From a plasmid, in the sequence record NZ_CP072215.1: a DNA stretch of 64,000 bases, one strand, 5' to 3'. Shown one piece after another: positions 23,457 through 62,657 of the stretch (position 1 is its first letter; each line of letters opens with the position of its first letter). Under the pieces are notes generated by a model. That model did not search any database, had not been told where the DNA came from, and worked only from the letters and a program-made list of their open reading frames with translations. Both the position numbers and the translations under genes were made by a program.

Positions 23457-24578
23457 TTATTTGTTGGTTTTCTGTTCCGATTGAAGTTGTGCGATAGATT
23501 TTGTCAGCCTGATGTTGGCGAGAGTCCATATCAATATATCACCCAAAACGATCCAGTTCACATTGAGATAAAGGGACAGAAGAATATTGAGCAGTATGAA
23601 TATAGTTGACACGGAAACAATGATGATCATGGTATTGCGCTGCTTTATTCCGAGAGCAAGCAGCTTATGGTGGATATGGTTCTTGTCCGGCAGGAACGGG
23701 TTCTTTCCGTTGCGTACCCGATGCAGGTAAACCCTGACCACGTCACAGCATGGAACCAGCAAGGGTGAGAAGGCCAGCACCATCGGATGTACATTTCCTG
23801 TATTATCGTCTAGTCCGCACATGGTCAGTTTGAGACTGAGGAAACAGAGCATCATGCCGATGGTCAAACTGCCTGTGTCGCCCATGAAGATCTTCCTTCC
23901 GTGTTTGGCGTTCCCGAAAACATTGTAATAGAAGAATGGTACCAACACTCCCAATGTGGCAAACGCCAGCATGGCATAAACATACTGATGGAGCATAAAG
24001 AAAGTCAGTCCATAAAATAGGCAGGCGATACTGCATAGCCCGGAAGCCAGCCCGTCAATGCCGTCAATCAGGTTGATGGCATTGATGATGAAGACCACGA
24101 TCAGGATGGTCAGGGGATATCCTAACCATAACGGCACCGCATGGATGCCCAGAACACCGTATAGGTTGTTGATATATACCCCACCGGCAATAAGCATCAC
24201 GCCGCACAGAATCTGGATGACAAACTTGGCACGATAACGGATACCGATCAGGTCATCGGCCATGCCAACCAGATATAGTACCATGATGGAGCAGAAAGCA
24301 AAAGCCAAAGAGCACACGTCGTTCCCGATTTCGGACAATATCTCCGAATGTCCCAGCACCATATTGATTCCTAGCAACAGGGCTATGGTGAAAAACACTA
24401 CCGGCTTGAATGCGATACCACCCAATCGGGGCACCGCACAATGATGTACCTTCCGCTCATCGGGAAAGTCGAACAATTTCTTACGGAAAGCGATTAGCAG
24501 AATCTGGGGAATGACGATACCCGCACAGAGAACACAAAGCAAAAATGCCAGTGAACAATTTACAATCCAAAAATACAT
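23457..24578 (-). CDS. Undecaprenyl-phosphate sugar-1-phosphate transferase, WecA/MraY family (initiating glycosyltransferase)
   Basis: Polytopic membrane protein with DDxxD-like motifs (GMADDLIGIRY, GIDGLASG). First biosynthetic gene after upxY, as is common in Bacteroides CPS loci. Confidence 0.8.
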   Translation of the reverse strand: MYFWIVNCSLAFLLCVLCAGIVIPQILLIAFRKKLFDFPDERKVHHCAVPRLGGIAFKPVVFFTIALLLGINMVLGHSEILSEIGNDVCSLAFAFCSIMVLYLVGMADDLIGIRYRAKFVIQILCGVMLIAGGVYINNLYGVLGIHAVPLWLGYPLTILIVVFIINAINLIDGIDGLASGLCSIACLFYGLTFFMLHQYVYAMLAFATLGVLVPFFYYNVFGNAKHGRKIFMGDTGSLTIGMMLCFLSLKLTMCGLDDNTGNVHPMVLAFSPLLVPCCDVVRVYLHRVRNGKNPFLPDKNHIHHKLLALGIKQRNTMIIIVSVSTIFILLNILLSLYLNVNWIVLGDILIWTLANIRLTKSIAQLQSEQKTNK

Positions 24579-24652: not shown

Positions 24653-25231
24653 TCAAAATTTGTCACAATCGGAATCATTGATGACTTCAATCAAATCGGG
24701 ATGAACTTCTACCGATATACCCATAATCCCTTCAAGCATCACAACCACCCGGCGGCGACGTTTTCCTTTCACCCGCATGAATACGCCCTTTACTCCATTG
24801 AACTTGCCACCGTAAATACATATGTGGGTACCTTTCCGTATGTCAATCTCTTCCGGTTTATAATAAATAGTGTTTTCTTCATACTGCGAGGCAATCTTGA
24901 TAAAGCTCTCCATTTGCTTATCCGGCACCACGATATATTTCAGTCCCGTGCTTTTCTCCCACATCATGAATTGTAAGAAATTATATTTTTTTTTGAAATC
25001 CGTGATCTGTTTTCGGGAAGCATGCACGAAGACGAGATTCGGGATGACTGGTACAAGCCTTTTGGATTTCACTCCGTGATAGACCCTTACGGCATAGTGT
25101 TTCGGTATGAAATACTCTAGACCATCCTTGCCTTTGAGCATCTCTTCCGCCTTTTTCTCGTTTTTATAAGCGCTCATGGCGAACCATTGGATTCTAGTTA
25201 GATCTTCCCTTGTGGTTATGGGAGTACTCAT
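24653..25231 (-). CDS. upxY: UpxY-family NusG-like transcription antiterminator; first gene of the CPS operon
   Basis: 192 aa. NusG N-terminal-like region and a C-terminal KOW motif (GKFNGVKGVF). No upxZ-like ORF follows it. Confidence 0.8.
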   Translation of the reverse strand: MSTPITTREDLTRIQWFAMSAYKNEKKAEEMLKGKDGLEYFIPKHYAVRVYHGVKSKRLVPVIPNLVFVHASRKQITDFKKKYNFLQFMMWEKSTGLKYIVVPDKQMESFIKIASQYEENTIYYKPEEIDIRKGTHICIYGGKFNGVKGVFMRVKGKRRRRVVVMLEGIMGISVEVHPDLIEVINDSDCDKF

Positions 25232-25380
25232 TCGTCGTGTGTTTTTTAGTTATTACGGCAGGTCAAGATATACCCATAGTTCATCCCAACTTATGTATTG
25301 GTCTGTATTATAGTAATTTATGTCTTTTTTGGCTGTCATATCAACCATTCATGCCGTCTTTTATCTTGCCGCATTCCTAT

Positions 25381-25596
25381 TTTTCTCCATAAGAGAAATA
25401 GAGGACATAAATATTTAACATATATAATTGATTTACAGGGATTATTCGCTGTAAATACAATCTAGTTTACTCAACATTTGTTATGTAACCACGACATTTA
25501 ACGAGGTGGCTATTAAGGTTTTTCTTTGTTTTATGCTATTATGTTCAATAATTTATGTATTTTTGCATATTCAAAACATTTCTCTTATGGAGAAAA
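25381..25596. promoter_or_regulatory. Candidate invertible CPS promoter: 19-bp perfect inverted repeats (25381-25399 and 25578-25596) around a 178-bp segment that carries a Bacteroides -7 motif (TATTTTTG at about 25556, plus strand)
   Basis: IR verified base by base: ttttctccataagagaaat against atttctcttatggagaaaa. The TAnnTTTG motif points rightward, away from upxY. Confidence 0.6.
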
Positions 25597-26101
25597 CCGT
25601 CATTTATTCAATCTTTTTCAAGCAAGAATTTTGTACTTTCACGGGGCTTTTTCCTTTCTGAATCCATCTTGTCATACAACTGAAAGTATAGGGTATATAC
25701 TTGTTCATTATATTCCTATGGCATTCGTATAGGAAATTTCTCCTATTTTCGGTGTTTCTCTTTCTGAGAGAAATGGGGTGATTGGTATTTTGATGTATAT
25801 CAAATATTTATAAGATTGGTATAATCAATTTGCTCAACAAATAATCAGTTTTTTCTAATCATACCTCTTATTTTTTATGGTATGACTAATATTTTTCTTC
25901 TGATTTTTAGTGTTTTTTGTGTTATCTTTTGTACTTTTGCATTTACAAATCTTTCTCTCAGAAAGAAAACTTCAATTTGTATAACATAATTCCAACTTAT
26001 TTTTTGTCAGATAAATAAAAATAATAATTGCCATAGAATAACAGCGGGCCGATTGGGCACGTATGCTGAAACCTATGGCGTAAACTGTTTTATAATGTGA
26101 A

Positions 26102-27322
26102 TTAAAGTGTATTTAAAATAATACTGTTCGCTTTATCCACTACGGAGGTGTCTAACGATGCAAGATAAATCCGTGTAGTGCTTTCTGAATCATGTCCCAT
26201 AGCTTCGCTGATGGTAGCCAACGGAATGTTTTTGCTTCTGGCGATAGAAGCCCAGGCGTGACGTGCCACATAACTCGTCAGCGGAATAGGAAGGCCGATT
26301 TGTTTTCCCAATTTCTTTAGTTTTGAATTCACCAGCTGGGCTGCATTCTTGTATTGTTTCCGTTCATCCGTTTTTGCGTCGAGAATGATCGGCAATAGAT
26401 AAGAAGAACCTATGGTATCGTATTTATCTATGATTTCTTGCATGGGCTTTTCCCATTTGATTACTAGCTGTTGGTTGGTCTTTTTTCTGCGATATGATAA
26501 AAAACCGTTTTGCAAATTACTTTTCTTTAGATAAGCCATGTCTATAAATGACATCCCTCGGGTATAAAAACTGAACATAAATAGGTCTCTTGCATATTCC
26601 AAAGAGGAGTCGTGACTTAAATCCATATCGCGTATCTGTCGGATAATTTTGGCCGGAACTGCCCGTTTTACAGTTTTATCTATGCCCGTATATACATGTT
26701 TAAACGGATATCGCTGTATAACCAATTCTTTTTCTACGGCACGATTATACATGGCTCTGAGGTTTCTCATGTAATAGGAAGTACTGTTCGGACAAATGTC
26801 ATTAGATTTTAGATATTGTTCATATTCCATCATCAGGTTGGAGTCTATATTGTCGAAAGGGATGTCTCTGCCTTTCTTTCTGAAATTCATGAATCGCTTG
26901 AAGCTATTGAGCGTAGTGGTATAAGTTTCTGTGGTGCGTATTTTACCTATTTGTCTCAATTCTTCAATGAGATTCTCACAAAATGACACAAAGTACTCGT
27001 TCACAGGAGGAGCGGAATAATATTCAATGATTTCGTCTGCCGTATATTTGTATCCAAGATTCTCAAATCTTATCATAATATCTTTTAGACGTGAGGTGTC
27101 TTCCTCAATACATTTTTTTAAAGAAACCAAATACCGATGCCGGTTTTCTCCTGTCTTTGCTGGTATGATTATTTGGGAATTGAAAATATCCCACTCGTCA
27201 GGATAAATCTTGTATCCTGAATTTATCTGCCTTGCTACACGATTATGAATTACTTGATAGAACAATGTTCCCGCTTTTCCTTCTATAGAGGAATGTCGAT
27301 ACTTTATTTTTAATGATGCCAT
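26102..27322 (-). CDS. Tyrosine site-specific recombinase/integrase
   Basis: C-terminal HAWASIARSKNIPLATISEAMGHDSESTTRIYLA is the catalytic R...H-x-x-R...Y region typical of Bacteroides integrases. 406 aa. Confidence 0.85.
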   Translation of the reverse strand: MASLKIKYRHSSIEGKAGTLFYQVIHNRVARQINSGYKIYPDEWDIFNSQIIIPAKTGENRHRYLVSLKKCIEEDTSRLKDIMIRFENLGYKYTADEIIEYYSAPPVNEYFVSFCENLIEELRQIGKIRTTETYTTTLNSFKRFMNFRKKGRDIPFDNIDSNLMMEYEQYLKSNDICPNSTSYYMRNLRAMYNRAVEKELVIQRYPFKHVYTGIDKTVKRAVPAKIIRQIRDMDLSHDSSLEYARDLFMFSFYTRGMSFIDMAYLKKSNLQNGFLSYRRKKTNQQLVIKWEKPMQEIIDKYDTIGSSYLLPIILDAKTDERKQYKNAAQLVNSKLKKLGKQIGLPIPLTSYVARHAWASIARSKNIPLATISEAMGHDSESTTRIYLASLDTSVVDKANSIILNTL

Positions 27323-27502
27323 TTTTTTGTTTAATTAATATTATATTCTCCAAAATAAATGTTTTGGCGTATTATATGTTTAATAACCAATAAATTAGAT
27401 AACTGTTTGATTTTGATTATAGTTGGATTTATATTGATATGGCGAAATACTTGGCTATTATATATCAATGTGAATAATGTTGGATTTTATTCTTCTTTTA
27501 TT

Positions 27503-27870
27503 TCCGTACTGCCCTTTTCCTTGTTTTCTGCCTCCCCTAATGTACGTTTTTTCATAGCCCCGTCTGAGAGCCTTTGTTTTTGAACGGCAAATTTATTTCG
27601 GTGGATGGATACGAAAGAGTTCCGGTCTTCGCCCTTTGTACCGAAAAAAATAACGCCGGACGGCTTCGCTGTCCCCAACATTTTTTGTCGTCCAAAACTT
27701 TTCTCAATCCCTCCTTCCTTCTTGTTGTGTGCCGTAAAAAAAAGGCTTATAAACTCAGATGGGGCATGAAAGCTCAAAAAAAAAGTCGGCAGAAAGAAAA
27801 GGTCATCCCGGAAAGGGGTTTTAAAAAAAGGTCTTTAAATCTAGCTGAAGCATAAAATTAGAAGTTTAAC
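27503..27870. repeat. Conserved ~368-bp non-coding element, copy 1. A ~96% identical copy lies at 62290-62657 and a partial 3-prime copy at 56215-56340.
   Basis: Near-identical sequence strings seen directly. Each copy ends about 20-40 bp upstream of the first gene of a plus-strand operon. Confidence 0.9.
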
Positions 27871-30445: not shown

Positions 30446-31972
30446 TTATCTTCTAGCTAAAGGCAGTAACAACCGTTCCACAAGTTCTTTCTTGTTCTCA
30501 ACGGGCATCTTGTTTCTGCCTTTGGCAATGACTTCAGCAGCCAAATCGCTTTTACGCCCGGCAATGTATTTCTGTCGCTTTCCGTTTATGAAGGCCTCGA
30601 TACGGAAATCATGCCGGGTGTTTTCGATGATGTTGATTTCTGATACCAAAAAGCCATCCTCTGTCTCGTAGGGTTCGACAATGGTGGGCAGGTAGTGTTT
30701 CATGGTTTTCCCTATGATCGGAGATACCAAACCGGAAAGATGCTCTTCGATGCGGTCTTTCCAATAGTCATCGATTTGATGATTGGTGGCATAATCGTAA
30801 AAATGGCTGATGGCAAGGCTGACTTCTTCGATTATCCTTTTCGCATTCTTTATTCCGTTCTGTTTGGCAAATTGCATCAGGTCATCTTCCGTGATGTCGT
30901 TATCTTTTCCTGCAATGCTCATGGAGTGTGCGTTTTCGTATGCCGCACCGTCCAAATTGGTGGTGAATGTCATGTCGTAGGCTGGGGTGATGTGCCATGT
31001 GCCGTTTCTTTCCATCAGGAAAGAGAAATTCTTGATGTGGTCATCCACATTGCCGCCCATGATATTGAATACCGTCCTACGGTAGAGTTCGGACTGTTCG
31101 CTTGCCGGGATGTTCAGTTTTCGGCAGACTTCAAACAAATCCTCATAGCTCGTTGCATCCGGATTCATGGCAGCAAGTGTCTGTGTATGTATCTTCTCTC
31201 CGTTTATCCTATCGTAACGCTCCGTCAGGAAGTGATGTTTTCCCTCAATTTGAATGAGTCGGGAAGGCATCATCGTAATCCCGGCTTCCTTTGCCATCTC
31301 ATAATATACCATTTCCATTTGCGTGAACGGAAAATCGTCCCCTTCTGCAAACTTCAATATGTAGTAGGTATAGCCCTCCGGTAAAGGGACTTGGCCGGAA
31401 CGTATATCATGTGTCGTTTCATTGATGGCGATGATGGCTTTCGGGTGCTGCCCTCCGGCTGATGTACCTATCTCATAGATACTTTGCAGTTGCAGTGCTT
31501 CGTCATCTTGCACGGATATTTCCTCCCGTTCCTCAAAGATACGGCGTGCCAGTTGGTATAAACTCTCTATCTGGAGAGTGGAAGAGGATTCCAATCCAGG
31601 AGTGGCCGGGATGAACTCAAAGGCTCCCATTCCCCGTTTCCCGATGAAAGACAGTTTATCTACCGGTGTGAGTTTGCGCTTGGGGATATGGTTTTGTGCC
31701 GCCCATTGGTCGAAGACCATGTTACCCCACCGATCAGGCAATGAATCTGCCAAAAACGGTGGGAGACCTTGATAAGTCTTTTCTTTGTTTCCGAGTATGG
31801 GCATACCCTTTGCCGCCGGTCCTTTGACAGAAGCGGTCAGTGGGGCGATTTCCACTCCTTTCTTGATGAAATCCGGATGATAGTTGAAGACGGCTCTTTT
31901 GTTTCTTTCGTCCCAATAGAGCTTTCCGACTTCTTCTCCCCATAACATAACACTCACAACATTATTTTCCAT
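30446..31972 (-). CDS. hipA: HipA-family serine/threonine kinase toxin (module 1)
   Basis: HipA N-terminal domain (VMLWGEEVGKLYWD...FNY) and the catalytic loop VFNIMGGNVDDHIKNFSFLM (compare E. coli VFNLLIGNTDAHAKNFS). 508 aa. Confidence 0.85.
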   Translation of the reverse strand: MENNVVSVMLWGEEVGKLYWDERNKRAVFNYHPDFIKKGVEIAPLTASVKGPAAKGMPILGNKEKTYQGLPPFLADSLPDRWGNMVFDQWAAQNHIPKRKLTPVDKLSFIGKRGMGAFEFIPATPGLESSSTLQIESLYQLARRIFEEREEISVQDDEALQLQSIYEIGTSAGGQHPKAIIAINETTHDIRSGQVPLPEGYTYYILKFAEGDDFPFTQMEMVYYEMAKEAGITMMPSRLIQIEGKHHFLTERYDRINGEKIHTQTLAAMNPDATSYEDLFEVCRKLNIPASEQSELYRRTVFNIMGGNVDDHIKNFSFLMERNGTWHITPAYDMTFTTNLDGAAYENAHSMSIAGKDNDITEDDLMQFAKQNGIKNAKRIIEEVSLAISHFYDYATNHQIDDYWKDRIEEHLSGLVSPIIGKTMKHYLPTIVEPYETEDGFLVSEINIIENTRHDFRIEAFINGKRQKYIAGRKSDLAAEVIAKGRNKMPVENKKELVERLLLPLARR

Positions 31973-32282
31973 GTCTTATCCTTTTCGGCTTTTTATTCAT
32001 TATTCGTTCCATTGTATAGGCTGAAACAGGTATTTCCGGCATCAGATCATCCATCTGTTCCAGACAGTCCACTACTCGTAACAGGGCAAGAAAGTTGCCC
32101 ATATTGATGTTATAGGCCTTCCCGTTCTCAAACTGGCGTAAGGTGATAAGGCTGACACCGGCTTTCTCGGCAGCCTCTTTTTGGGTGAGCCTATAGGTTA
32201 GCCTGTATTCCTTAAATCGTCTGCCCAGTTCCACTATGATTTCCGGATTGGCCATGGCTTGGGTGATGTGATTCGTTGTCAT
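31962..32282 (-). CDS. hipB: HipB-like XRE-family HTH antitoxin (module 1)
   Basis: HTH LTQKEAAEKAGVSLITLRQFENGK. 11-bp overlap with hipA-1. A 16-bp perfect palindrome (32294-32309 and 32326-32341) lies upstream as a candidate operator. Confidence 0.8.
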   Translation of the reverse strand: MTTNHITQAMANPEIIVELGRRFKEYRLTYRLTQKEAAEKAGVSLITLRQFENGKAYNINMGNFLALLRVVDCLEQMDDLMPEIPVSAYTMERIMNKKPKRIRHGK

Positions 32283-32381
32283 TTTACAAAGGTAAATATA
32301 TTAATTGTTAAATCAAAATATGATATATAACAATTAATATATTTACTGTTATATTGAATTGTGCGCGATGTAGTTTGTGTG

Positions 32382-33971
32382 CTAATCCCCCAATTCCATG
32401 CTACGTTTATTGCCGCCTGTAATCGGGCTTTGCGCGGGTTTTATGTCCTGAAGGCTTTTTAGCATCCCTTCCATTTGGAAGATTTTGGCGGCAGCGATGA
32501 AGGTGGTGGCGGATACATCCGGCTGGAGGCTTTTCAGTGTGTTCTCCGATGGCTGATATCCTCTCATCTTCAGTTTCAGAATGGTATTGAAGTCATCATT
32601 TCGCATAGCCTTCATGAAAGCCTGCTCTTGTTCGTTGGCAATGTCCGGCATATGGATCGTATGCAGTTGCTTGCCGAACAAGAGCAGGTTTTCTCCGATA
32701 AAATCGGCGTGTTCCGGCTTGACCCCGCAATCCTTGGCAGTCTCATGCCAATGCGATACGGTTTCCTGTATCTCTTCGATAATCTGTTTGTGTTTCCGGA
32801 TACCCATGTTCTCACCTACCTTTTGCAGATCTTCCATCGTGAAATTGTCTTGTTTGCCGTTGAGTGACAGCTGGTGGCGGTTCGTCCATTTGCCGCCCGG
32901 TGTGTATGAGTAGCAGAGGTCGTATGCTGGGGCCAGTTTCCACTTCCCTTGTCTATCCATCAGGAAAGATAAGTTCTTGCTATGGTCGTCATGGTTCCGG
33001 CTCATGACGTTGAACACCATTCTTCGGTATAGTTCCTCCTGCTCTGGATAAGGGAGGTTCATCTGCCGCATGATACGGAATATCTCTTCGTATGAATGGC
33101 GTTGGTCACGGTCATAGTGGGCAAGCCCGGCCAATGTCTGTACATGGATCTTCTCTCCGTCTTCCATACGGTCAAAACGTCGTGTCATAAAGTGATATGA
33201 CTCTTTTTCCTGAAGTAACCGGCATTCCATCATATCGATACCGCAGGCTTTTGCCATCCGGTGATAGGCATATTCGATATTTCCTATTCCTTGTGGATTG
33301 TCCGTTATCTGCGTGTGTTCGCTGTATTTGCCGCCATCAAATTTCAACAGCCAATACCCGAATCCTTCAGGAGCTTTTACCTGTCCGGAGCGTACCTCTC
33401 CGGTAATATCGTTGTAGGCGATGATGGCCTTGGGCTTGGCACCTCCGGCAGATGTTCCCACTTTCAGTATATCCAGAATGTTTCTTCCTTCCTGGCGCAG
33501 TTGGACCTGAAAAGCCATTCTGTCCGTGAATACGGATTTGGCAAGCTCAGTCAGTTCCTCGATATGGAGCACTGATGATTCGTTCATGCCGTTGATTGGC
33601 GAGGACGGCTCAAACTCCAGTGCGCCCATGCCACGTTTGCCTACATAGCAAAGCCTGTCTAAAGGGGTAATCTCTTCTCCGGACAATCCCTTGCTGGCAA
33701 ACCATTCATTGATGATCTGGTTTCCGAAAGTGTCCGGCAGTGAATCGGCAAACAGGCCGGGCAACCCCTTGAAACAGTCGGTACGGTTTTCAAGGAACCG
33801 GTAGGGGGTGTTCCTGTACTGGCTGATGGGCATGATGATGGGAGAAATGTCAAGACCGGAGCGGATGAACTTCCGTTCATAGTCGAACAAGGCGGCATTG
33901 CTTTCCTTTTCCCAATAGAGAGAGCCTACGCTTTCTCCCCATAGCTTTACATCTACTATCAAATCATTCAT
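32382..33971 (-). CDS. hipA: HipA-family serine/threonine kinase toxin (module 2) with a ~100-aa C-terminal extension
   Basis: Catalytic loop VFNVMSRNHDDHSKNLSFLM. About 45-50% identical to HipA-1 by eye. 529 aa. Confidence 0.85.
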   Translation of the reverse strand: MNDLIVDVKLWGESVGSLYWEKESNAALFDYERKFIRSGLDISPIIMPISQYRNTPYRFLENRTDCFKGLPGLFADSLPDTFGNQIINEWFASKGLSGEEITPLDRLCYVGKRGMGALEFEPSSPINGMNESSVLHIEELTELAKSVFTDRMAFQVQLRQEGRNILDILKVGTSAGGAKPKAIIAYNDITGEVRSGQVKAPEGFGYWLLKFDGGKYSEHTQITDNPQGIGNIEYAYHRMAKACGIDMMECRLLQEKESYHFMTRRFDRMEDGEKIHVQTLAGLAHYDRDQRHSYEEIFRIMRQMNLPYPEQEELYRRMVFNVMSRNHDDHSKNLSFLMDRQGKWKLAPAYDLCYSYTPGGKWTNRHQLSLNGKQDNFTMEDLQKVGENMGIRKHKQIIEEIQETVSHWHETAKDCGVKPEHADFIGENLLLFGKQLHTIHMPDIANEQEQAFMKAMRNDDFNTILKLKMRGYQPSENTLKSLQPDVSATTFIAAAKIFQMEGMLKSLQDIKPAQSPITGGNKRSMELGD

Positions 33972-37681: not shown

Positions 37682-38914
37682 ATGACGAAAAGATGTTTTT
37701 TTTATATTAAATGTGTATTGTTCGTGCTCGTGTTGAGTATAAGCGGAGAAATATCCGCTCAGGAGAAGCGTGATTCGGTAAGGATCTATTTTCATCAAGG
37801 AAAGGTAAATATAGATACATGTTTACTTGACAATGGGAACGAGATGGAGCGGTTTGCTAAAATCTGTTCCGCATTGAACGACTCCGTCCGTCTTATCAGG
37901 AAAATTCAAATAATAGGAGGAGCTTCCCCGGAAGGAGGGGGGCTGTTGAATGGAAGGCTGTCTGAAAAACGAGCAGAGGTTTTGTGGCGGTATATATCAC
38001 CTTATATAAAGATTCCGGTATTGGAGAAGGATTTTCATTTTTCGGGAAGCGACTGGAACGGACTTATAACGATGGTGAGAGCGGATGTGAATGTTCCGGA
38101 GAGGGAGGATGTCCTTCGTTTGTTGGAGAAGATCGTCCGTTTGGAAAACCAGGACAGCCCTTATTTGGGGGGAGAACTGAAAAGACTGAAAGGGGGGAGG
38201 CCATACTCATATTTGTATAAATTCCATTTTCCGAAACTTCGTTCGTCGATGGTGAAAATATGCTATGATAGTGATCCGATAAATCCCGTCAGAGATACGG
38301 TATATATACATACACGTGATACGTTGTGCATCCGTGATACCGTTACCGTCATAGCTCCGGTAAAGAAACGGCCGTTTTGCATGGCGGTGAAAACAAACTT
38401 GCTTTATGACGCTGTTTTGATACCTGACATCGGGGTTGAGTTCTGTTTGGGGAAGAACTGGTCTGTGGCCGGGAATTGGATGTATGCCTGGTGGAAAAGT
38501 GATCGGAAGCATAATTATTGGCGTATCTATGGGGGAGATGTGGAGTTGCGCCGCTGGTTCGGTCGGAGAGCGGTGGAAAAACCGTTTTCCGGGCATCATG
38601 TCGGATTGTACGGGCAGATCGTCACCTATGATTTCGAATTGGGTGGGAAAGGTTACTTGGGGGATAAATGGAGTTACGGGGGAGGCGTGGCTTACGGCTA
38701 CTCGTTACCTGTGGGACATCGGTTCAATGTGGATTTCACGTTGGGAATCGGCTACCTTGGAGGATCGTACAAGGAGTACATCCCTTTGGACGGTCACTAT
38801 GTATGGCAGACCACTAAAAACCGCCGCTGGTTCGGCCCGACCAAGGCGGGTATCTCTTTGGTGTGGTTGATCGGGCGGGGGAATTATAGCCGGAAGAAAG
38901 GAGGCAGGCAGTGA
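37682..38914 (+). CDS. Secreted protein with a DUF3575-like C-terminal beta-barrel region (DUF3868/DUF3575 type); first gene of a type-V fimbrial operon
   Basis: Signal peptide, then a C-terminal NLLYDAVLIPDIGVEF...GYLGGSY region typical of DUF3575 proteins that precede Mfa/Fim genes in Bacteroidales. Confidence 0.55.
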   Translation: MTKRCFFYIKCVLFVLVLSISGEISAQEKRDSVRIYFHQGKVNIDTCLLDNGNEMERFAKICSALNDSVRLIRKIQIIGGASPEGGGLLNGRLSEKRAEVLWRYISPYIKIPVLEKDFHFSGSDWNGLITMVRADVNVPEREDVLRLLEKIVRLENQDSPYLGGELKRLKGGRPYSYLYKFHFPKLRSSMVKICYDSDPINPVRDTVYIHTRDTLCIRDTVTVIAPVKKRPFCMAVKTNLLYDAVLIPDIGVEFCLGKNWSVAGNWMYAWWKSDRKHNYWRIYGGDVELRRWFGRRAVEKPFSGHHVGLYGQIVTYDFELGGKGYLGDKWSYGGGVAYGYSLPVGHRFNVDFTLGIGYLGGSYKEYIPLDGHYVWQTTKNRRWFGPTKAGISLVWLIGRGNYSRKKGGRQ

Positions 38915-39831
38915 TACGGATACGCTTTAGTCTGGTGTTCATATTTTTATGGATAGGACTGACGGCTTGTGAGCATAAGGATTTATGTTACGATCATCCG
39001 CACTTTGCCACGGTGCGGGTAATATTCGACTGGACCAAGATTTCCAATCATGACAAGCCTGAAGGCATGAGGGTCGTATTTTATCCGACCGACGATGAAA
39101 GCAACACGTGGATATTTGATTTCCCCGGAGGAGAGGATGGGGAAGTGGAGCTTCCCGAGAATGATTACCGGGTAATTTGCTTCAACTACGATACCGACGG
39201 GATGGTTTGGAAAGAAAACGGCAGTTACACGCTTTTTACTGCCGATACGCGTGATGTGCAGTCGCCGGATAACCGGACAATGGCTGTCACCCCACCTTGG
39301 CTGTGTGGCGACCATATAGACGAAGTTATCCTCAAGGACATTCCGGGAGGAAGCGCGGAGATAGTACGGCTGACTCCCGTAAACATGGTATGTCACTACA
39401 CGTATGAGGTGAACGGTCTTCGGGGACTGGATAGGGTGGCGGATTTGCGGGCCGCTCTTTCCGGCATGTCCGGCTCGCTTAACATGTCCGCCGACAGTTT
39501 GCCCGCCGGTCTTTCGGAGAGCCTGCTCTTTGATGGAATGGTTTCACGGAATCAGATTATAGGCGGATTCTATACGTTTGGACATTCCGCACTTGAAGGA
39601 GAGCCCAATGTTTTCCGGTTGTATCTCAAGAACCGTTCAGGCAGCATGTCTGTATTGGAACAGGACGTGAGCGGCCAAGTGCATGATGTCCCGGTAGTGG
39701 GGCATGTCGGTGATGTGCATCTGGTGTTGAATTTTGATTATGAGGTTCCATCCGAGCCGGGAAGTGACGGTGCGGGATTTGATGTGGACGTTGATGATTG
39801 GGATGATGTGAATATGGATATAGTGTTGTAA
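38911..39831 (+). CDS. FimB/Mfa2-family fimbrial lipoprotein (anchor/terminator subunit-like)
   Basis: Lipoprotein signal LWIGLTAC. 4-bp overlap with the upstream gene. Position within the fimbrial operon. Confidence 0.55.
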   Translation: MIRIRFSLVFIFLWIGLTACEHKDLCYDHPHFATVRVIFDWTKISNHDKPEGMRVVFYPTDDESNTWIFDFPGGEDGEVELPENDYRVICFNYDTDGMVWKENGSYTLFTADTRDVQSPDNRTMAVTPPWLCGDHIDEVILKDIPGGSAEIVRLTPVNMVCHYTYEVNGLRGLDRVADLRAALSGMSGSLNMSADSLPAGLSESLLFDGMVSRNQIIGGFYTFGHSALEGEPNVFRLYLKNRSGSMSVLEQDVSGQVHDVPVVGHVGDVHLVLNFDYEVPSEPGSDGAGFDVDVDDWDDVNMDIVL

Positions 39832-39849
39832 TATGAGTTTATTAATTAT

Positions 39850-41013
39850 ATGTATCAATTTGATTTATTTTTATTTATGAAAAAAAGTACAGTAATGCTT
39901 TGGGCAATCTTTGGAGCTCTACTCATGGGTTGCTCAGACGAGGAGATTGCGAATGTGGAAACCTCCTCACGGAATGCGATTGGTTTTAACGTGTTAAGTA
40001 ATGCGGCGGAAACGAGGGCTACCCCTACTACCAACACCAACTTGAAGAACACCGATTTCGACGTGTTCGCTTTTACGGCGGATGGTACTGCCTTCATGGG
40101 AAAGGTAGACACGGATTTTGGACATGACGGAGTGAATATCGTGTACAATAATGGTAAGTGGGATTATAAAAATGCGAGCGACCTTCGTTATTGGCCTACC
40201 GAGGCTTTGGACTTTTACGCATTCAATCCCGGAACGGTTGATGAAGCCATGCAGTGGAGTTATATGTGGGAAGCCACCAAGGATACTCAAAAGATAACTT
40301 ATTCCTGCTCCGATGAGTATGGATCTGGTATCAATGCTCATGAAAACTACGACGTGATGTATGCCATAGCCAAAGGCCAGACAAAAGACAAGAACAACGG
40401 AGTAGTGAAATTTAACTTCAAGCATATTCTGTCACAGGTCGTATTCAAAGCAAAGACCGAATACGATAACATGCAGGTGAATATAAAGGACATCAAGATT
40501 TTTAATGTAAAAATGGGCGGCGTCTACACATTGCCTGCGACAGCCGATGGAACGGGAAGTTGGGCTGTGGGTGATTGGCCTGAAAGCTCTACAGGAGGAG
40601 GTTTTATTACCGTAGTGCAAGGCAAATTCATCGAGGTCAATAGTAATACCACAGCTACCGATATTTCCGAAAAAACTCCTATGCTGAATATACCACAGAA
40701 GCTGACAGCATGGAAAGTTTCCGAAGAAGCCACCAATACCAAGATAAAAGCCGACGGTGCGCATCAATGTTACCTGTCGATCACCTGCAAAATCCAGCAG
40801 TCCGGAGGTTATCTGTTGGGTTCAGCAGATAGTTACGGAACAATTTATGTTCCGTTCGGAGATACATGGGTAGCGGGCAAGCGTCATATCTACACGTTGA
40901 TTTTCGGTGGTGGTTATACTGATCAGGGAGAGGCTGTGTTGAATCCGATCCAGTTTGATGCAGAGACAACAGGCTGGGTTGATGCAAATAGCAACGTAAA
41001 CGTTAAACCTTAA
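39850..41013 (+). CDS. Fimbrillin-family (Mfa1/FimA-like, type V pilin) lipoprotein
   Basis: Lipobox LLMGCSDEE followed by a Thr/Asn-rich beta-rich sequence typical of Bacteroidales fimbrillins. 387 aa. Confidence 0.6.
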   Translation: MYQFDLFLFMKKSTVMLWAIFGALLMGCSDEEIANVETSSRNAIGFNVLSNAAETRATPTTNTNLKNTDFDVFAFTADGTAFMGKVDTDFGHDGVNIVYNNGKWDYKNASDLRYWPTEALDFYAFNPGTVDEAMQWSYMWEATKDTQKITYSCSDEYGSGINAHENYDVMYAIAKGQTKDKNNGVVKFNFKHILSQVVFKAKTEYDNMQVNIKDIKIFNVKMGGVYTLPATADGTGSWAVGDWPESSTGGGFITVVQGKFIEVNSNTTATDISEKTPMLNIPQKLTAWKVSEEATNTKIKADGAHQCYLSITCKIQQSGGYLLGSADSYGTIYVPFGDTWVAGKRHIYTLIFGGGYTDQGEAVLNPIQFDAETTGWVDANSNVNVKP

Positions 41014-41463: not shown

Positions 41464-42222
41464 TTACTTTATTTCTGTTAGCAGTTCGTTACATACCTTT
41501 TCGTAGTCCTCTGCCCCGGCAGATTTGGGGGCATAGTGAAAAATATCCTGCCCTTGTGTCGGGGCTTCGGCCAGCGTAATGGCGTTGCGTATATGGGTGC
41601 TGAACACTTTGCCCTGGAATGTTTCCTGTACCAGTTCCGAAACGCTCTTGTTCAGGTTCTTTCTTCCGTCGTACTGGGTTATCAGAACCCCGGCTATCGA
41701 AAGATCCGAGTTCAAACGTTGCTGCACCTTGTGGACGACCTGCATAAGTTTGGCCATTCCACGCATTGCCAGGAATTGAGCCTGAACCGGGATAATCAAC
41801 CGATCCGAGGCCGTCAGTGCGTTAAGCGTGAGCAGCGACAGCGAGGGGGGACAGTCGATCAGGATATAATCGAATTTCTCCTTTTGGCCCTTGATAAGGT
41901 GGGCTAAGATAAGCTCCCGTCCGGCCTCGTTGATTAACTCCGTTTCAACGGCCGAGAGATCCAGGCAGGAGGGAACGACGCTAAGGCCGTCCTTATGCTC
42001 GTAGATCGGCAGGTCGTATTCGCCTTTCATCGCACCGTAGATCGTTTGGGGAAGCTCCGCAGAGAAGCCCAGCGATTCGGTCAGGTTGGCCTGCCCGTCA
42101 AGGTCGATCAAAAGAACCTTGTACCCTTTTTGACGTAACGCACCGCCCAGGTTGATCGTGGTTGTGGTCTTTCCTACTCCCCCCTTGTGATTCAATACGG
42201 AGATTACTTTTGCTTTGCTCAT
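41464..42222 (-). CDS. parA: ParA-family partition ATPase
   Basis: Deviant Walker A VLNHKGGVGKTTTTINLG. 252 aa. Confidence 0.9.
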   Translation of the reverse strand: MSKAKVISVLNHKGGVGKTTTTINLGGALRQKGYKVLLIDLDGQANLTESLGFSAELPQTIYGAMKGEYDLPIYEHKDGLSVVPSCLDLSAVETELINEAGRELILAHLIKGQKEKFDYILIDCPPSLSLLTLNALTASDRLIIPVQAQFLAMRGMAKLMQVVHKVQQRLNSDLSIAGVLITQYDGRKNLNKSVSELVQETFQGKVFSTHIRNAITLAEAPTQGQDIFHYAPKSAGAEDYEKVCNELLTEIK

Positions 42223-42841: not shown

Positions 42842-43678
42842 ATGGAACAGGGAGAAATCATATTATACCAGCCGGATGAAGCGGTCAGGTTGGAAGTGAG
42901 GCTGGAAGATGAAACCGTTTGGCTGACACAGGCGCAAATTGTGGATCTTTTTCAATCCAGCAAAGCAAATATAAGCGAGCATATAAAAAACATATATGAT
43001 CAGAAAGAATTAGAGGAAAGTTCAACTGTTCGGGATTTCCGAACAGTTCGACAGGAAGGCAAACGGCAAGTGATGCGCAATCTGACTTATTACAATTTGG
43101 ATGCGATCATATCCATTGGGTTTCGTGTCAATAGTAAAAGAGGTATTTTATTTAGGCAATGGGCGAATAAGGTTTTAAAGGACTATCTTTTAAAAGGGTA
43201 TTCCATTAATAAACGTTTGTCAGAACTTGAAAGGACTGTCGCTCAACATACCGAGAAGATAGATTTTTTTGTGCGTACTGCCTTGCCCCCGGTCGAAGGC
43301 ATTTTTTATAACGGCCAGATTTTCGATGCGTACAAGTTCGCTACCGATCTGGTAAAGTCGGCCAGGCGTTCGATCGTGCTTATCGACAACTATGTGGACG
43401 AAACGGTCTTGCTCATGTTGAGTAAACGCAGCGTCGGTGTCTCGGCCACCATTTACACCCAGCGTATCACGCAGCAACTCCAACTTGATCTTGACAGGCA
43501 TAACAGCCAGTACCCACCTATCGACATCAGGACGTACCGGGACAGTCACGACCGTTTCCTGATCGTTGATGAAACGGACGTGTACCATATCGGAGCCTCG
43601 TTAAAGGATCTGGGGAAAAAGATGTTCGCTTTCTCAAAGCTGGATATTCCGGCGGCTGTGATTACTGACCTGTTATAA
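42842..43678 (+). CDS. RhuM-family virulence-associated protein (copy 1, intact)
   Basis: N-terminal MEQGEIILYQPDEAVRLEVRLEDETVWLTQAQI is characteristic of RhuM. Followed by a stem-loop terminator at 43727-43748. Confidence 0.75.
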   Translation: MEQGEIILYQPDEAVRLEVRLEDETVWLTQAQIVDLFQSSKANISEHIKNIYDQKELEESSTVRDFRTVRQEGKRQVMRNLTYYNLDAIISIGFRVNSKRGILFRQWANKVLKDYLLKGYSINKRLSELERTVAQHTEKIDFFVRTALPPVEGIFYNGQIFDAYKFATDLVKSARRSIVLIDNYVDETVLLMLSKRSVGVSATIYTQRITQQLQLDLDRHNSQYPPIDIRTYRDSHDRFLIVDETDVYHIGASLKDLGKKMFAFSKLDIPAAVITDLL

Positions 43679-49608: not shown

Positions 49609-50556
49609 TTAGAACCCAACACCTCTCTTGCGCTTAACTTTCTTCCTTCTGCGAAGTATATCCACCATTTCCTGATTGGCTTCCGCATCAGCAGTGTTAT
49701 AAGATGAGCCACTGCTTTTTAGCAATCCCCAAGAGCCGTTGAACAACTCGCTTTGTGCCGTGCCGGACGGTGCGCTTGGTGTAGCCGTTTCATATATTCC
49801 GGCTGTTATTCCCATACGTTCCCTGCATCTGTTGTGCTGCAAAGCCGCGTCAATCTTGGAATAACTGAAACGCCTGTCCACTTTGGAGCCGTTGAAATGG
49901 TAGCCATTCATGGAGAATACAACACCCTGCACCTCGCTGGTCTGCCCCTTATGCTTGAAATGTACTTCCACTCCCTGCCGTTTCAGGTTGGCGATAAGCA
50001 CGTTCCAGTTGCCGCATCTGCCGACTTCCATTTTGATGATGTCGTAAAGCGCATATTTCGTCCTGTCTGGCTCTTTCAGGCGGTTGCGTTTGACATTGTC
50101 CTTTCCGCCAGCCATATGCAAGCCGTATTTCAAGGTCAATTCCTTGCAGATGCGGGTACTGCGCAGACGCTCGTGCCTGTCCGATATGGTATTGCCGTTG
50201 TTGTCTATGCGGTTGAAAGCAATATGCACGTGCGGATGCTCCTTGTCGAAATGCTGGGCGATGAAGAACTGCGTATTCTTGATTCCCATCCGTTCCATAT
50301 ATTCAAGCGCGATGCCTGCCATGATACGGTTCGTCAGCCGTAACTCATCCTCTTTGGAAAAACTCAACGCGATATGTCCGACAGGTTTTGTCACCTTATC
50401 GTTCATCCGTGACTGGGCATTGAAACTCATGGCGATAGTTTCCAGATTTTCCATAAACAAGCCTTCGCTTGCTACTATCTGCGTATCCTTCTTCTTGTCG
50501 ATGATGTAATCCACCGCACCCTTGAAGTCGCTTCCTTTTACGATTTTCGCCATCAT
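49609..50556 (-). CDS. Relaxase/mobilization nuclease (second mobilization module)
   Basis: Catalytic His motif HPHVHIAFNRID and an N-terminal relaxase fold. 315 aa. 4-bp overlap with the upstream accessory gene. Confidence 0.8.
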   Translation of the reverse strand: MMAKIVKGSDFKGAVDYIIDKKKDTQIVASEGLFMENLETIAMSFNAQSRMNDKVTKPVGHIALSFSKEDELRLTNRIMAGIALEYMERMGIKNTQFFIAQHFDKEHPHVHIAFNRIDNNGNTISDRHERLRSTRICKELTLKYGLHMAGGKDNVKRNRLKEPDRTKYALYDIIKMEVGRCGNWNVLIANLKRQGVEVHFKHKGQTSEVQGVVFSMNGYHFNGSKVDRRFSYSKIDAALQHNRCRERMGITAGIYETATPSAPSGTAQSELFNGSWGLLKSSGSSYNTADAEANQEMVDILRRRKKVKRKRGVGF

Positions 50557-55981: not shown

Positions 55982-56329
55982 CAGGTTAATTTCTTGATTG
56001 TATCGGATTGCCCTTTCTGTGGGCTGCCTCCCCCGGCTTCTTTCCTCCGATCCGAGTCCGGCTTTTTGCTCGGCAAAGGTTTCGGGATTCCGCAAATGGC
56101 AAGTTACGGCCATGCGCCTTTACTGTATGGAAAATAACGATGAAGAAGTGTCTTCCCGACATTTTCCATAAGTGAAACTTGGCTTATTGCTTGCAATCCA
56201 GACCTTGATATGCCGAAAAAAGGCTCAGAACTCAGATGGGGAATGACATCAAAAAAAAGGTCGGCTGACCAAAGACCTTCCCGATACAAAAAATGAAAAG
56301 GTCTTGAATCTAGCTGAAGAATAAATCAG

Positions 56330-56728
56330 ATGTTCAACTTAAATAATGCTAATATGGAAAATTTGATTACACAAATCAACAAAGAGAGATTGGTTAATAG
56401 CGACACAGCTCTTATGATGAAGGAATTATACTATTACGTGCCTTGTGAGTATTGGTATGACAAACAGGATAGGCTACGCACCGATATTGAGGGAAGGAAT
56501 ACCCCGATGTATATGTGCGAGTGCCCGACACTGGCAGCATGTATCCAATGGATGATACAGACTCGTGAATATACGTTTCAAACAGAACAAAACGTGGCGG
56601 TCTGGCATGTGGTTGTGAGGGCTGGAGATTATGTGTTGTATGACTCCGAAAGTAATGCGGACGCTTTTTGTTGTTTGGAAGAAGCATTGGAAAAAGCGGT
56701 ACAGGAGTGCATGGAGTTATTGTATTAA
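56330..56728 (+). CDS. Hypothetical protein (132 aa) preceded by the partial copy of the conserved leader element
   Basis: ORF. The leader homology ends about 20 bp upstream of it. Followed by a stem-loop terminator. Confidence 0.5.
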   Translation: MFNLNNANMENLITQINKERLVNSDTALMMKELYYYVPCEYWYDKQDRLRTDIEGRNTPMYMCECPTLAACIQWMIQTREYTFQTEQNVAVWHVVVRAGDYVLYDSESNADAFCCLEEALEKAVQECMELLY

Positions 56729-56840: not shown

Positions 56841-57437
56841 TTATTTGTTATTTTTGTTCTCGGATTTCAGCGCAATTCCATTCCTTCTTAATAGGCGATA
56901 TACTGTTCCGCTACTGCCTATGTTTAATATTTTCTGTATCTCCCTTACCGGCGTTCCGGATTCATAGAGTTGGATGCAGCTTTTCTGCTTGGCGATGTTG
57001 TTTTTGTTGATAAGTGTCTTTCTGCCGAATTTGACACCTTTTTCCTTGGCGATTCTTCTGCCTTCTTGGGTTCTCTCATAGATAAGGTCTCTTTCAAACT
57101 GAGCGAAAGCACCGAGAATGTTGTTCATCAGTTGGCCGATTGCGCCTTCCGTACTGATGTTGTCTTGCAGTGAGGTGAATTGGATGCCCCTATTCTTGAA
57201 ATCTTCCAATAGCGTAAGGATATTCTTCAGCGAACGGCCAAGCCGGTCCAGCTTATATACGACAAGTGTGTCGCCTTCCCGGAGAAAGCTCAGGCAGGCA
57301 TCCAGTTCCGGGCGGTTTTGTTGACGTCCGGTCATTTTCTCAGAGAAGATTTTCTCGCATCCGGCAGCCTTCAACGCTTCCAGTTGCATATCCAGATGTT
57401 GTTCCTTGGTGGAAACACGGGCATATCCTATTTTCAT
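56841..57437 (-). CDS. Small serine recombinase of the Hin/Gin DNA-invertase type (198 aa)
   Basis: N-terminal MKIGYARVSTKEQHLDMQ (catalytic Ser), LDRLGRS, and a C-terminal HTH. Size and architecture match DNA invertases, including Bacteroides Mpi-like enzymes. Confidence 0.85.
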   Translation of the reverse strand: MKIGYARVSTKEQHLDMQLEALKAAGCEKIFSEKMTGRQQNRPELDACLSFLREGDTLVVYKLDRLGRSLKNILTLLEDFKNRGIQFTSLQDNISTEGAIGQLMNNILGAFAQFERDLIYERTQEGRRIAKEKGVKFGRKTLINKNNIAKQKSCIQLYESGTPVREIQKILNIGSSGTVYRLLRRNGIALKSENKNNK

Positions 57438-57824: not shown

Positions 57825-58677
57825 TCATAATACATCAATTATCGTATGGGCAGGAAGTTCCAGTTTGGAGAAAGCAAACATTTTCTTGCCCAAATCCTTT
57901 AGCGATGCCCCAATATGATATACTTCCGTATTATCAATGATTAAGAAGCGGTCATGACTACTTTTGTAGGTTCTAGCTTCAATGGGAGGATATTGGTCAT
58001 TGTGTTTGTTTAAATCAAGTTGGAGCTGTGCGTTTATTTTGTGTATAAATAGTAGCTGATACTCCACTGTTTCGTTTGCTCAACATGAGTAACACGGATT
58101 CATCTACATAGTTGTCGATAAGCACAAGTGAGCATTTGGCAGACTTTATTAAATCTGTAGCAAACTTATACGCATCGAATATCTGACCGTCAAAGAATAT
58201 ACCTTCCACCGGAGGCAATGAGGTGCGTACAAAGAAGTCTATCTTTGCATCATGTTCAGCAATGGTTTTCTCTATTTGGAAGAATCTATTGTTCATTCTA
58301 TATTCCATGTCATTGAGCCGTTGGTTTATAGAATAACCTTTCAATAAATATTCTTTTAAAATTTTATTTGCCCATTGCCTGAATTGCGTACCTCTTACGC
58401 TTTTAACTCTGTATCCAACTGAAATTATTACGTCTAGACTAAAGAACTTGACAGGCTTATCGGAATTAGCAATGTGCAAAAAATGCACATTGCTTTTCTC
58501 TTCCAATTCCTTTTCCTTAAAAACATTATTTATATGTTTGGTAATAACGGTTCTGTCACGTTGAAAAAGTTCTGCTATCTGCGCTTGTGTGAGCCAAACG
58601 GTTTCATCTTCTAAACGTACTTCCAACCTTACAGCTTCATCCGGTTGGTATAGTATGATTTCTCCTTGCTTCTCCAT
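57825..58677 (-). pseudogene. RhuM-family protein (copy 2) split by a frameshift into a 220-aa N-terminal and an 80-aa C-terminal ORF. Inverted relative to copy 1.
   Basis: The first 33 aa are identical to copy 1 (MEKQGEIILYQPDEAVRLEVRLEDETVWLTQAQI). The C-terminal ORF matches the copy-1 C-terminus (HIGASLKDLGKKMFAFSKL). Confidence 0.65.
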
Positions 58678-61870: not shown

Positions 61871-62289
61871 ATCGTTGTATTATGTTATCAAAAGTAATAA
61901 TTATTAGGATATTGGTAAGCATTTCTTCTGAAAAACTTTTTAAAGATATTGTTTTAAGATGACATACTGTGTTTTTGCGTTCACGCAGTATTCTTTCCCA
62001 CCCTCCCCTTCATCGGAATGACTGTTCTCATTTCCGGTTTACCCGTAGTCATCCGCTATGCGGCTGATTATGGGCAAACCAGAAAAGAGAAGTTCCAAAC
62101 GTGGGCGGGATTGCAATGGTCATCATCCGGAGCTTCGGCATTGCCGAAACAACCTCCTTCTTCCGTATTGCAGCCCCGTCCTTTTACCGTTTGTCCCGGC
62201 AGTCCGTTGCTAACCCGTTCCCCCCTGCCACTTGTGGCAGGGAGATAGGAATACGGTTTTGCAGGCAAAACCGTATGGCTTGTTTTACT

Positions 62290-62657
62290 TTCCGTACTGC
62301 CCTTTTCCTAGTTTTCTGCCTCCCTTAATGTGCGTTTTTCATAGCCCCATCTGAGACCCTTTGTTTTTGAACGGCAAATTTATTTCGGTGGATGGATACG
62401 AAAGAGTTCCGGTCTTCGCCCTTTGTCCCGAAAAAAATAACGCCGGACGGCTTCGCTGTCCCCAACATTTTTTGTCGTCCAAAACTTTTCTTAATCCCTC
62501 CTTCCTTATTGTTGTGTGCCGTAAAAAAAAGGCTCATAAACTCAGATGGGGCATGAAAGCTCAAAAAAAAAGTCGGCAGAAAGAAAAGGCCATCCCGGAA
62601 AGGGGTTTTAAAAAAAGGTCTTTAAATCTAGCTGAAGCATAAAATTAGAAGTTTAAC
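62290..62657. repeat. Conserved ~368-bp non-coding element, copy 2 (~96% identical to 27503-27870)
   Basis: Aligned directly with copy 1. Ends about 20 bp upstream of the 62679 ORF. Confidence 0.9.

Follow-up and report, generated by a model that had tools for sequence, protein, structure and literature searches.

We analyzed a stretch of 64,000 nucleotides (nt) from the plasmid sequence record NZ_CP072215.1, here called the window, in which a gap of 870 bp (25232-26101) separates upxY, the first gene of a capsular polysaccharide (CPS) operon, from a gene for a tyrosine recombinase. Judged by its sequence, the gap holds a tandem pair of near-twin, repeat-bounded, putative promoter cassettes, A and B, both pointing away from the operon, and both of these segments invert in nature. 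We read the gap as two independent promoter switches in series, flipped by the adjoining recombinase, with one invertase serving both, and we put the probability of this reading at about 0.8. The locus is a local tyrosine-invertase switch in a tandem, IP-ARG-2-like form and in an OFF/OFF state; switch type and tandem form have both been described already (PMC8748976), and what is new, on a small scale, is that A and B have unlike central triplets, that a motif inside the segments is conserved, and that a natural deletion should lock A ON.

Two segments in the gap and their inversion in public assemblies

The features of the gap and of the genes on either side of it are given below, IR-A and IR-B being the inverted repeats (IR) that bound segments A and B.

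24653-25231, minus strand: upxY (NCBIfam NF033644 UpxY, 156.5 bits against a cutoff of 100; Pfam NusG)
25232-25380, minus strand: fixed upxY leader, 149 nt, between inverton A and the upxY start codon
25381-25399: IR-A left arm, on the upxY side, TTTTCTCCATAAGAGAAAT; in the family register TTTCT-CCA-TAAGAGAAAT
25400-25577: invertible segment A, 178 bp
25466-25476, plus strand: internal motif TTTACTCAACA in A (family consensus TTTGCTCAACA)
25558-25565, plus strand: -7 box of promoter A, TATTTTTG followed by C (25558-25566 reads TATTTTTGC), 12 bp before the right arm
25578-25596: IR-A right arm, ATTTCTCTTATGGAGAAAA
25597-25755: fixed spacer between invertons A and B, 159 bp, in the same orientation in every contig examined
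25756-25773: IR-B left arm, TTCTCTTTCTGAGAGAAA; perfect core 25759-25773; in the family register TCTCT-TTC-TGAGAGAAAT
25774-25951: invertible segment B, 178 bp
25829-25839, plus strand: internal motif TTTGCTCAACA in B
25932-25939, plus strand: -7 box of promoter B, TACTTTTG followed by C (25932-25940 reads TACTTTTGC), 12 bp before the right arm
25952-25969: IR-B right arm, TTTCTCTCAGAAAGAAAA; perfect core 25952-25966
26102-27322, minus strand: tyrosine recombinase, 406 aa, presumed local invertase for A and B (Pfam Arm-DNA-bind_5, Phage_int_SAM_5, and Phage_integrase)

The arms of IR-A are 19 nt long, 100% complementary, and 178 nt apart, and recomputation bore out the 19-bp perfect repeats (25381-25399 and 25578-25596) that a sequence-only reading of this DNA had placed around 178 bp. 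With up to 3 mismatches allowed, the arm sequence had 0 other matches in the window, 0.09 being expected by chance. That reading had described one invertible promoter, which holds for A and overlooks a second inverton, B (25756-25969), placed between A and the recombinase gene; the switch is double. The IR-B arms are 18 nt long and 94% matching, with a perfect core of 15 nt, and are likewise 178 nt apart. Across the whole 64-kb window, these were the only 2 pairs of perfect inverted repeats of at least 15 bp lying 100-330 bp apart, against a mean of 0.01 such pairs in composition-preserving shuffles. A and B can be aligned over their whole length, and both hold TTTGTAyTTTTGCAT, including the -7 box 12 bp before the right arm.

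Within the gap, TAnnTTTG was matched only by the A and B boxes, both on the plus strand and at a like position, with the B box directed away from upxY and toward the 3' end of the recombinase gene. The minus strand of 25232-26101 had no match, and the scan of both strands agreed with the earlier statement that no equivalent of a consensus -7 box faces the operon. Because each sole -7 box points away from upxY, A and B are both OFF in the window; the sequence-only reading had given the A promoter this orientation and had correctly seen a single box in the segment reading away from upxY, although it set the box at about 25556 and not at 25558-25565. No intrinsic terminator was detected in a scan of 25100-26250, and a scan for sigma-70 promoters, a model not relevant to Bacteroides, remained at chance level.

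The site consensus obtained from 130 arms was TAyTTCTCT-yyn-TAAGAGAArTA, two inverted half-sites around a short asymmetric center, with T-10, T-8, G+1, A+2, and A+4 invariant. Good matches to this core motif in the window (0-1 mismatch, or paired sites) were limited to the four arms, and beyond these arms only singletons with 2 mismatches were found window-wide. A and B have their half-sites in common and carry CCA and TTC, respectively, as central triplets.

We scored against the window 43 distinct public contigs that carry the same exact recombinase, the same UpxY, or, for metagenome contigs, a 28-nt tag from the fixed leader. Segment A was in the window orientation in 36 of 38 contigs and flipped in 2 (L090 and L123), and segment B was in the window orientation in 32 of 34 and flipped in 2 (L085 and L086); similar places were collapsed, and 2/38 and 2/34 are not population frequencies. 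In all flipped contigs, the interior was 100% identical and the exact reverse complement, the flanks were unchanged, and the breakpoints fell exactly at the repeats. The lone arm mismatch remained with the flank in the B flips, and the B crossover therefore lies inside the 15-bp perfect core. A and B were flipped independently of one another. The repeats of 15-19 bp are far below the assembly k-mers given in some contig names (k119 and k141), so the flipped junctions (B in L085 and L086, A in L123) must be read-supported. The inversion proposed from the sequence was thus seen for A, with the segment reversed exactly at the repeats in two independent assemblies, L090 and L123. Neither inversion of the whole region (IR-A left with IR-B right) nor inversion of the spacer alone was seen among the 43 contigs.

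Several contigs end close to the arms: L094, L096, and L107 at or within 15 bp of IR-A left, L106 at 7 bp short of IR-A right, and L099 at 18 bp past IR-B left. Such ends are the usual assembler signature of mixed orientation in a sample.

One contig with A flipped, L123 (ERZ27263789 k141_51383; equivalent to window positions 25381-25773), has A in the ON orientation together with a 176-bp deletion by which the spacer is lost. The deletion fuses IR-A right to IR-B left at their common TTTCTCTT, giving ATTTCTCTTTCTGAGAGAAAT. To judge from the sites left in this contig, A lacks a CCA-type partner and should be locked ON, and B retains two TTC-type sites. As L123 shows, A and B arms can recombine now and then, via the enzyme or via microhomology.

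The gap between the recombinase gene and upxY is also an insertion hotspot for insertion sequence (IS) elements. L085 has an ISL3-family insertion in the A-B spacer that duplicated 8 bp of target (25733-25740), and the sequence departs from that of the window at 25749 in L098 and at 25555 in L103.

The recombinase, its relatives, and published switches

The recombinase encoded at 26102-27322 showed full-length identities of 54%, 52%, and 47% to the invertases (about 400 aa) of the published IP-ARG-1, IP-ARG-2, and IP-ARG-3 regions. By this 47-54% identity and by the repeats that follow its homologues, it is the best candidate for the dedicated invertase that the sequence-only reading had suspected in the adjoining gene. 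In an alignment with XerA (4a8e), the Arg-His of box II, the Gly-His, and the catalytic Tyr (in TTRIY) are all retained, and Ser takes the Arg-I position; the Bacteroides integrase IntDOT has the same Arg-I-to-Ser substitution.

We identified 559 relatives of the recombinase, counting one genome per species, of which the best was only 67% identical, and we retained 80 loci (L001-L080) for analysis. Most of the 80 loci with enough downstream sequence had inverted repeats of the same core, ~150-200 bp apart, just downstream of the recombinase, and the recombinase and the TCTCT...AGAGA repeats were found together in Bacteroides, Phocaeicola, Parabacteroides, Alistipes, Prevotella, and Muribaculaceae. 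Downstream of the homologues lay 56 repeat-bounded segments with 140-205 bp between arms, and 50 of these had a -7 box within 17 bp (4-17 bp) of just one arm. The box was directed toward the recombinase (OFF) in 43 of the 50 and toward the downstream gene (ON) in 7. The genes after the switches included upxY (7 loci), DUF3575, and SusC-like transporters.

Two tandem segments were present in 10 of the 80 loci (L003, L005, L009, L021, L028, L030, L037, L063, L064, and L076), all with two repeat pairs unlike in the center, and the tandem form precedes both capsule and pilus operons (pilus: L005 and L076). L030, whose recombinase and UpxY are 63% and 80% identical, respectively, to those of the window, has the same order of a B-type (TTT) and then an A-type (CCA) site, and in the alignment with this locus, conservation was confined to the four arms, the -7 boxes, the internal motif, and the leader. 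The tandem form is old and under constraint, since L030 keeps these elements and the order of the sites. Eight further relatives (L007, L008, L011, L012, L016, L032, L054, and L066) had three copies of one arm sequence downstream of the recombinase match, with one arm pairing with two alternative partners 120-130 bp apart. Their arrangement would allow nested or alternative inversions and would not amount to two separate switches.

With up to 2 mismatches, TTTGCTCAACA was found on a fixed strand in 23 of the 50 oriented segments, compared with 7 of 50 on the opposite strand and 4.4% in shuffles. In 21 of the 23 matching segments, the motif lay 69-92 nt from the promoter-distal arm. One possibility is that it serves as an arm-type site for the N-terminal arm-binding domain of the recombinase. 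A palindromic yTGAnnnnCAr was also seen in oriented segments, ~30-40 nt from the promoter-distal arm.

Using PhaseFinder, Yan et al. (2022) defined three classes of Bacteroidales invertases, IP-ARG-1, -2, and -3, with the repeat motifs TCTCTCTTTAAGAGA for IP-ARG-1, ATCTCTCTTTAAGAGATGT and ATCTCTCCGTAAGAGATGT for IP-ARG-2, and TCTCCTTCTAGGAGA for IP-ARG-3 (PMC8748976). IP-ARG-1 and IP-ARG-3 are single invertons; in IP-ARG-2, two adjoining invertible regions lie downstream of one invertase and were interpreted as separate promoters of the genes that follow; OFF is the usual state in the IP-ARG regions, and the invertase clade is linked to conjugative elements and glycan loci (PMC8748976). Our locus is alike in having a homologous tyrosine invertase immediately upstream, the repeat core TCTCTnnnTAAGAGA, a commoner OFF state, a glycan-locus origin (upxY, wecA), and a mobile-element setting. 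The IP-ARG arms are about 176-182 bp apart with a TAnnTTTGC -7 box inside each segment, and here the distance is 178 bp with the same box type, the box lying near an arm and both orientations occurring in natural DNA. The tandem form of IP-ARG-2 is found here as well, with two adjacent, separately bounded invertible regions, similar repeats, distinct promoters, and one invertase, and just as the IP-ARG-2 repeats differ only in their center (CTT and CCG), those of the window differ in theirs (TTC and CCA). The cargo differs, being antibiotic-resistance genes in IP-ARG and an intact ~20-kb capsule operon led by an intact upxY here, and the invertase, only ~52% identical to that of IP-ARG-2, is of a different lineage. 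In the literature consulted, tandem invertons received one brief mention (IP-ARG-2, PMC8748976), and our search otherwise returned nothing relevant.

Xu et al. (2007) noted that many CPS loci have a tyrosine recombinase directly ahead of upxY, including 5 of 9 in B. vulgatus, 11 of 13 in P. distasonis, and 4 of 8 in B. thetaiotaomicron (PMC1892571). The CPS loci of B. thetaiotaomicron share with the window the order recombinase, invertible promoter, and upxY on one strand, an internally palindromic repeat, and capsule phase variation (PMC1892571, PMC12118408). However, the repeat of CPS1, CPS3, CPS5, and CPS6, CCGTTACCTAAGAAGTAAC, has GTTAC...GTAAC half-sites (PMC12118408), whereas the half-sites here are TCTCT and AGAGA. 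The sequence-only reading had called the arrangement B. thetaiotaomicron style, which is right for the gene order but not for the repeat class, TCTCT...AGAGA as in IP-ARG (PMC8748976). We found no tandem second inverton at B. thetaiotaomicron CPS loci in the literature consulted.

Proposed mechanism and its alternatives

Each switch consists of a 178-bp segment with inverted, quasi-palindromic core sites and one -7 box ~12 bp from one end. The recombinase would bind the TCTCT and AGAGA half-sites and exchange strands in the matching center, whereby the segment would be reversed; following tyrosine-recombinase biochemistry, the asymmetric center would set the polarity of the site and would have to match between partners. 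With unlike centers (CCA in A, TTC in B), recombination of A with B is expected to be infrequent, so that a single enzyme could operate two bits. In the OFF/OFF state of the window and most assemblies, both promoters would read toward the recombinase gene, with no consensus promoter facing upxY. A flip of A would place the A promoter next to the fixed 149-nt upxY leader, and a flip of B would supply a second promoter ~370 bp further upstream, reading through A. Four points of this mechanism are inferred: flipping by the recombinase at 26102-27322, activity of the -7 boxes, passage of B-ON transcripts as far as upxY, and orthogonality of the two pairs of sites through their triplets.

Several points weigh against this mechanism, and they concern promoters, orientations, and enzyme. 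A and B both have poor -33 elements, and TAnnTTTG is not enriched across the window (56 matches, 61 expected), so the promoter function of the boxes rests on their position and conservation. The contig sample is small, and an ON/ON state was seen in none of the 43 contigs. L123 joins an A arm to a B arm, and the site types are hence imperfectly insulated. A B-ON transcript would have a path of ~550 nt through A to upxY. As for the enzyme, Bacteroidales tyrosine invertases can work in trans and redundantly, as in P. vulgatus and B. fragilis (PMC12940148), and a CPS promoter was inverted despite a defective local recombinase (PMC13114119).

These last two reports speak for a different source of the activity, in which the segments invert via a recombinase encoded elsewhere, either a serine recombinase of the window or a paralogous tyrosine invertase acting in trans, and the adjacent gene is dispensable. 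The 559 relatives of the recombinase among species-representative genomes speak for it as well. The serine recombinase is the following.

56841-57437, minus strand: serine recombinase, 198 aa (Resolvase and HTH_7)

It had been described as a Hin/Mpi-size serine invertase, but it is not an Mpi orthologue: its protein scored 61.1 bits against NF009949 (Mpi family), for which the cutoff is 272, and no Mpi-family serine invertase was found in the 64-kb window. We found no repeat pairs of the A and B kind next to its gene, and it is probably a mobile-element resolvase or invertase. The Mpi motif ARACGTTCGTN (as quoted in PMC8375218) had no exact match in the window, and hits with one mismatch were at chance level, with none in 25232-26101; the earlier statement that the repeats are not the Mpi consensus was thus correct. 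The B. fragilis Mpi system resembles the locus in its promoter segment of ~170-190 bp, its short inverted repeats, its place upstream of upxY, and its -7 promoter logic. However, Mpi is a serine enzyme and a global master that flips seven CPS promoters, whereas the enzyme here is a tyrosine recombinase and local, and the window lacks the Mpi motif, an Mpi-family enzyme, and a upxZ after upxY. The tyrosine recombinase gene and the TCTCT...AGAGA repeats, moreover, travel together across the Bacteroidales, and its open reading frame (ORF) is unbroken and unchanged across thousands of samples, all of which argues for the adjacent gene and makes inversion by an enzyme encoded elsewhere quite unlikely.

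The place of B is open to another interpretation, that only A switches the operon and B mainly serves the recombinase, either by antisense transcription into its 3' end, ~160 bp away, that tunes the switching rate, or as an insulator. In the OFF state, the -7 boxes of A and B both point at the convergent recombinase gene, the terminator scan showed nothing intrinsic separating B from that gene, and the recombinase-proximal repeat of the relatives often begins only 20-140 bp past the stop codon. A B-ON transcript, in addition, would need a long leader and would run against promoter A when A is OFF. Against these points, the geometry of B is that of A and that of single invertons directly preceding operons, and the authors of the sole tandem case in print took it for a pair of promoters serving the downstream genes (PMC8748976). 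We consider it unlikely that B mainly serves the recombinase or acts as an insulator.

We also formulated a more specific version of the two-switch reading, a two-bit switch run by one invertase, in which the triplets would act like heterospecific lox spacers and hold the two bits apart, TTTGCnCAACA would be an arm-type site or a site for an accessory protein, and antisense transcription would give a fimE-like feedback. Such a site, ~70-90 nt from the promoter-distal arm, would account for how closely the length of the segments is conserved, and OFF promoters would fire antisense into the convergent recombinase gene, so that orientation would feed back on the switching rate. In heterospecific lox/FRT sites, spacer identity decides which sites recombine, and at E. 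coli fimS, the local tyrosine recombinases FimB and FimE flip one promoter segment. The fim system differs in being a single switch with an unrelated protein lineage, and orientational control of the recombinase would here be hypothetical. No description of these three parts was found in the literature consulted, and we regard the combination as speculative and rather doubtful.

In gut Bacteroidales, susceptibility to phages, interactions with the immune system, and fitness in colonization depend on phase variation of the capsule. The locus is very widespread, and metagenomic surveys of orientation should therefore score two switches and not one. Loci with tandem segments are a natural setting in which to ask how several independent bits can be operated by a single tyrosine recombinase, and the value of the present analysis lies in the correct annotation of a widespread locus and in testable details on one invertase with two adjacent switches.

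The capsule operon and its mobile-element setting

The CPS operon led by upxY is ~20 kb long and extends on the minus strand to about 4610. Its second gene is the following.

23457-24578: WecA-type GT4, the next ORF after upxY, 74 bp downstream

The operon continues with genes for Wza-like Poly_export, Wzz/tyrosine-kinase, CpsB/CapC, an epimerase, UDP-glucose dehydrogenase, a nucleotidyl transferase, and others. Among the ORFs of the window, upxZ was not found as the second operon gene, as GT4 follows upxY with no ORF between them. In one contig (L122), an IS66-family element lies within the CPS operon, directly after the GT4 gene.

The fixed leader (25232-25380) was the best-conserved intergenic block in the alignment with L030 and is possibly a region of UpxY recruitment and pausing. 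Gene callers place a 31-aa ORF in the leader (25253-25348), which we rejected as a gene, its frame being broken in L030 with the nucleotides conserved. Since the frame is lost there, conservation of the leader is probably at the nucleotide or RNA level. No class-1 ops-type hairpin YGCGNAGCR (PMC11685472) was seen by eye in the leader, and class-2 sites lack such a hairpin anyway. Rfam families gave no match in 25000-26300 at E values up to 1.

The locus is present in human-gut metagenome contigs; the exact recombinase protein is indexed in about 46,000 blocks of public assemblies, and the exact UpxY protein in about 60,000. Mobile-element genes were found in the window at 384-1784, 30446-33971, 41464-42222, 42842-43678, 49609-50556, and 58015-58677, and comprise two MobA/VirD2-type relaxases, two HipA-like toxin genes in tandem, ParA, and two RhuM-family genes. 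Some contigs (L086 and L088) have, upstream of the recombinase, a context unlike that of the window. Because of the mobile-element genes, the very many assembly blocks, and the varying upstream context, the sequence suggests that the capsule locus travels on a mobile island, and the relaxases together with ParA suggest a placement on a conjugative element.

This setting, rich in relaxase, ParA, HipA, and RhuM genes and with a different upstream context in L086 and L088, could also be taken to mean that the recombinase is a mobile-element integrase, with the repeats as attachment-site-like remnants that have nothing to do with regulation of the capsule. The arm-type DNA-binding domain of the protein, typical of integrases, agrees with such a view. 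Yet the events observed were clean inversions of 178-bp segments with -7 boxes, the recombinase matches published invertases and not just integrases, and many genomes have the same architecture ahead of upxY, of pilus operons with DUF3575, and of SusC-like genes. An integrase with remnant attachment sites is accordingly very improbable.

The window also holds a pilus operon (DUF3575, DUF5119, and an Mfa-like fimbrillin) at 37682-41013, of the kind that most recombinase homologues precede, yet its upstream region showed neither a recombinase gene nor a repeat pair. A direct repeat of 380 bp, 96.6% identical between its copies, occurs just upstream of the recombinase gene (27492-27870) and again ~35 kb away (62279-62657), with a weaker third copy at 56216-56348. 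These copies could be mobile-element boundaries or a small paralogous gene.

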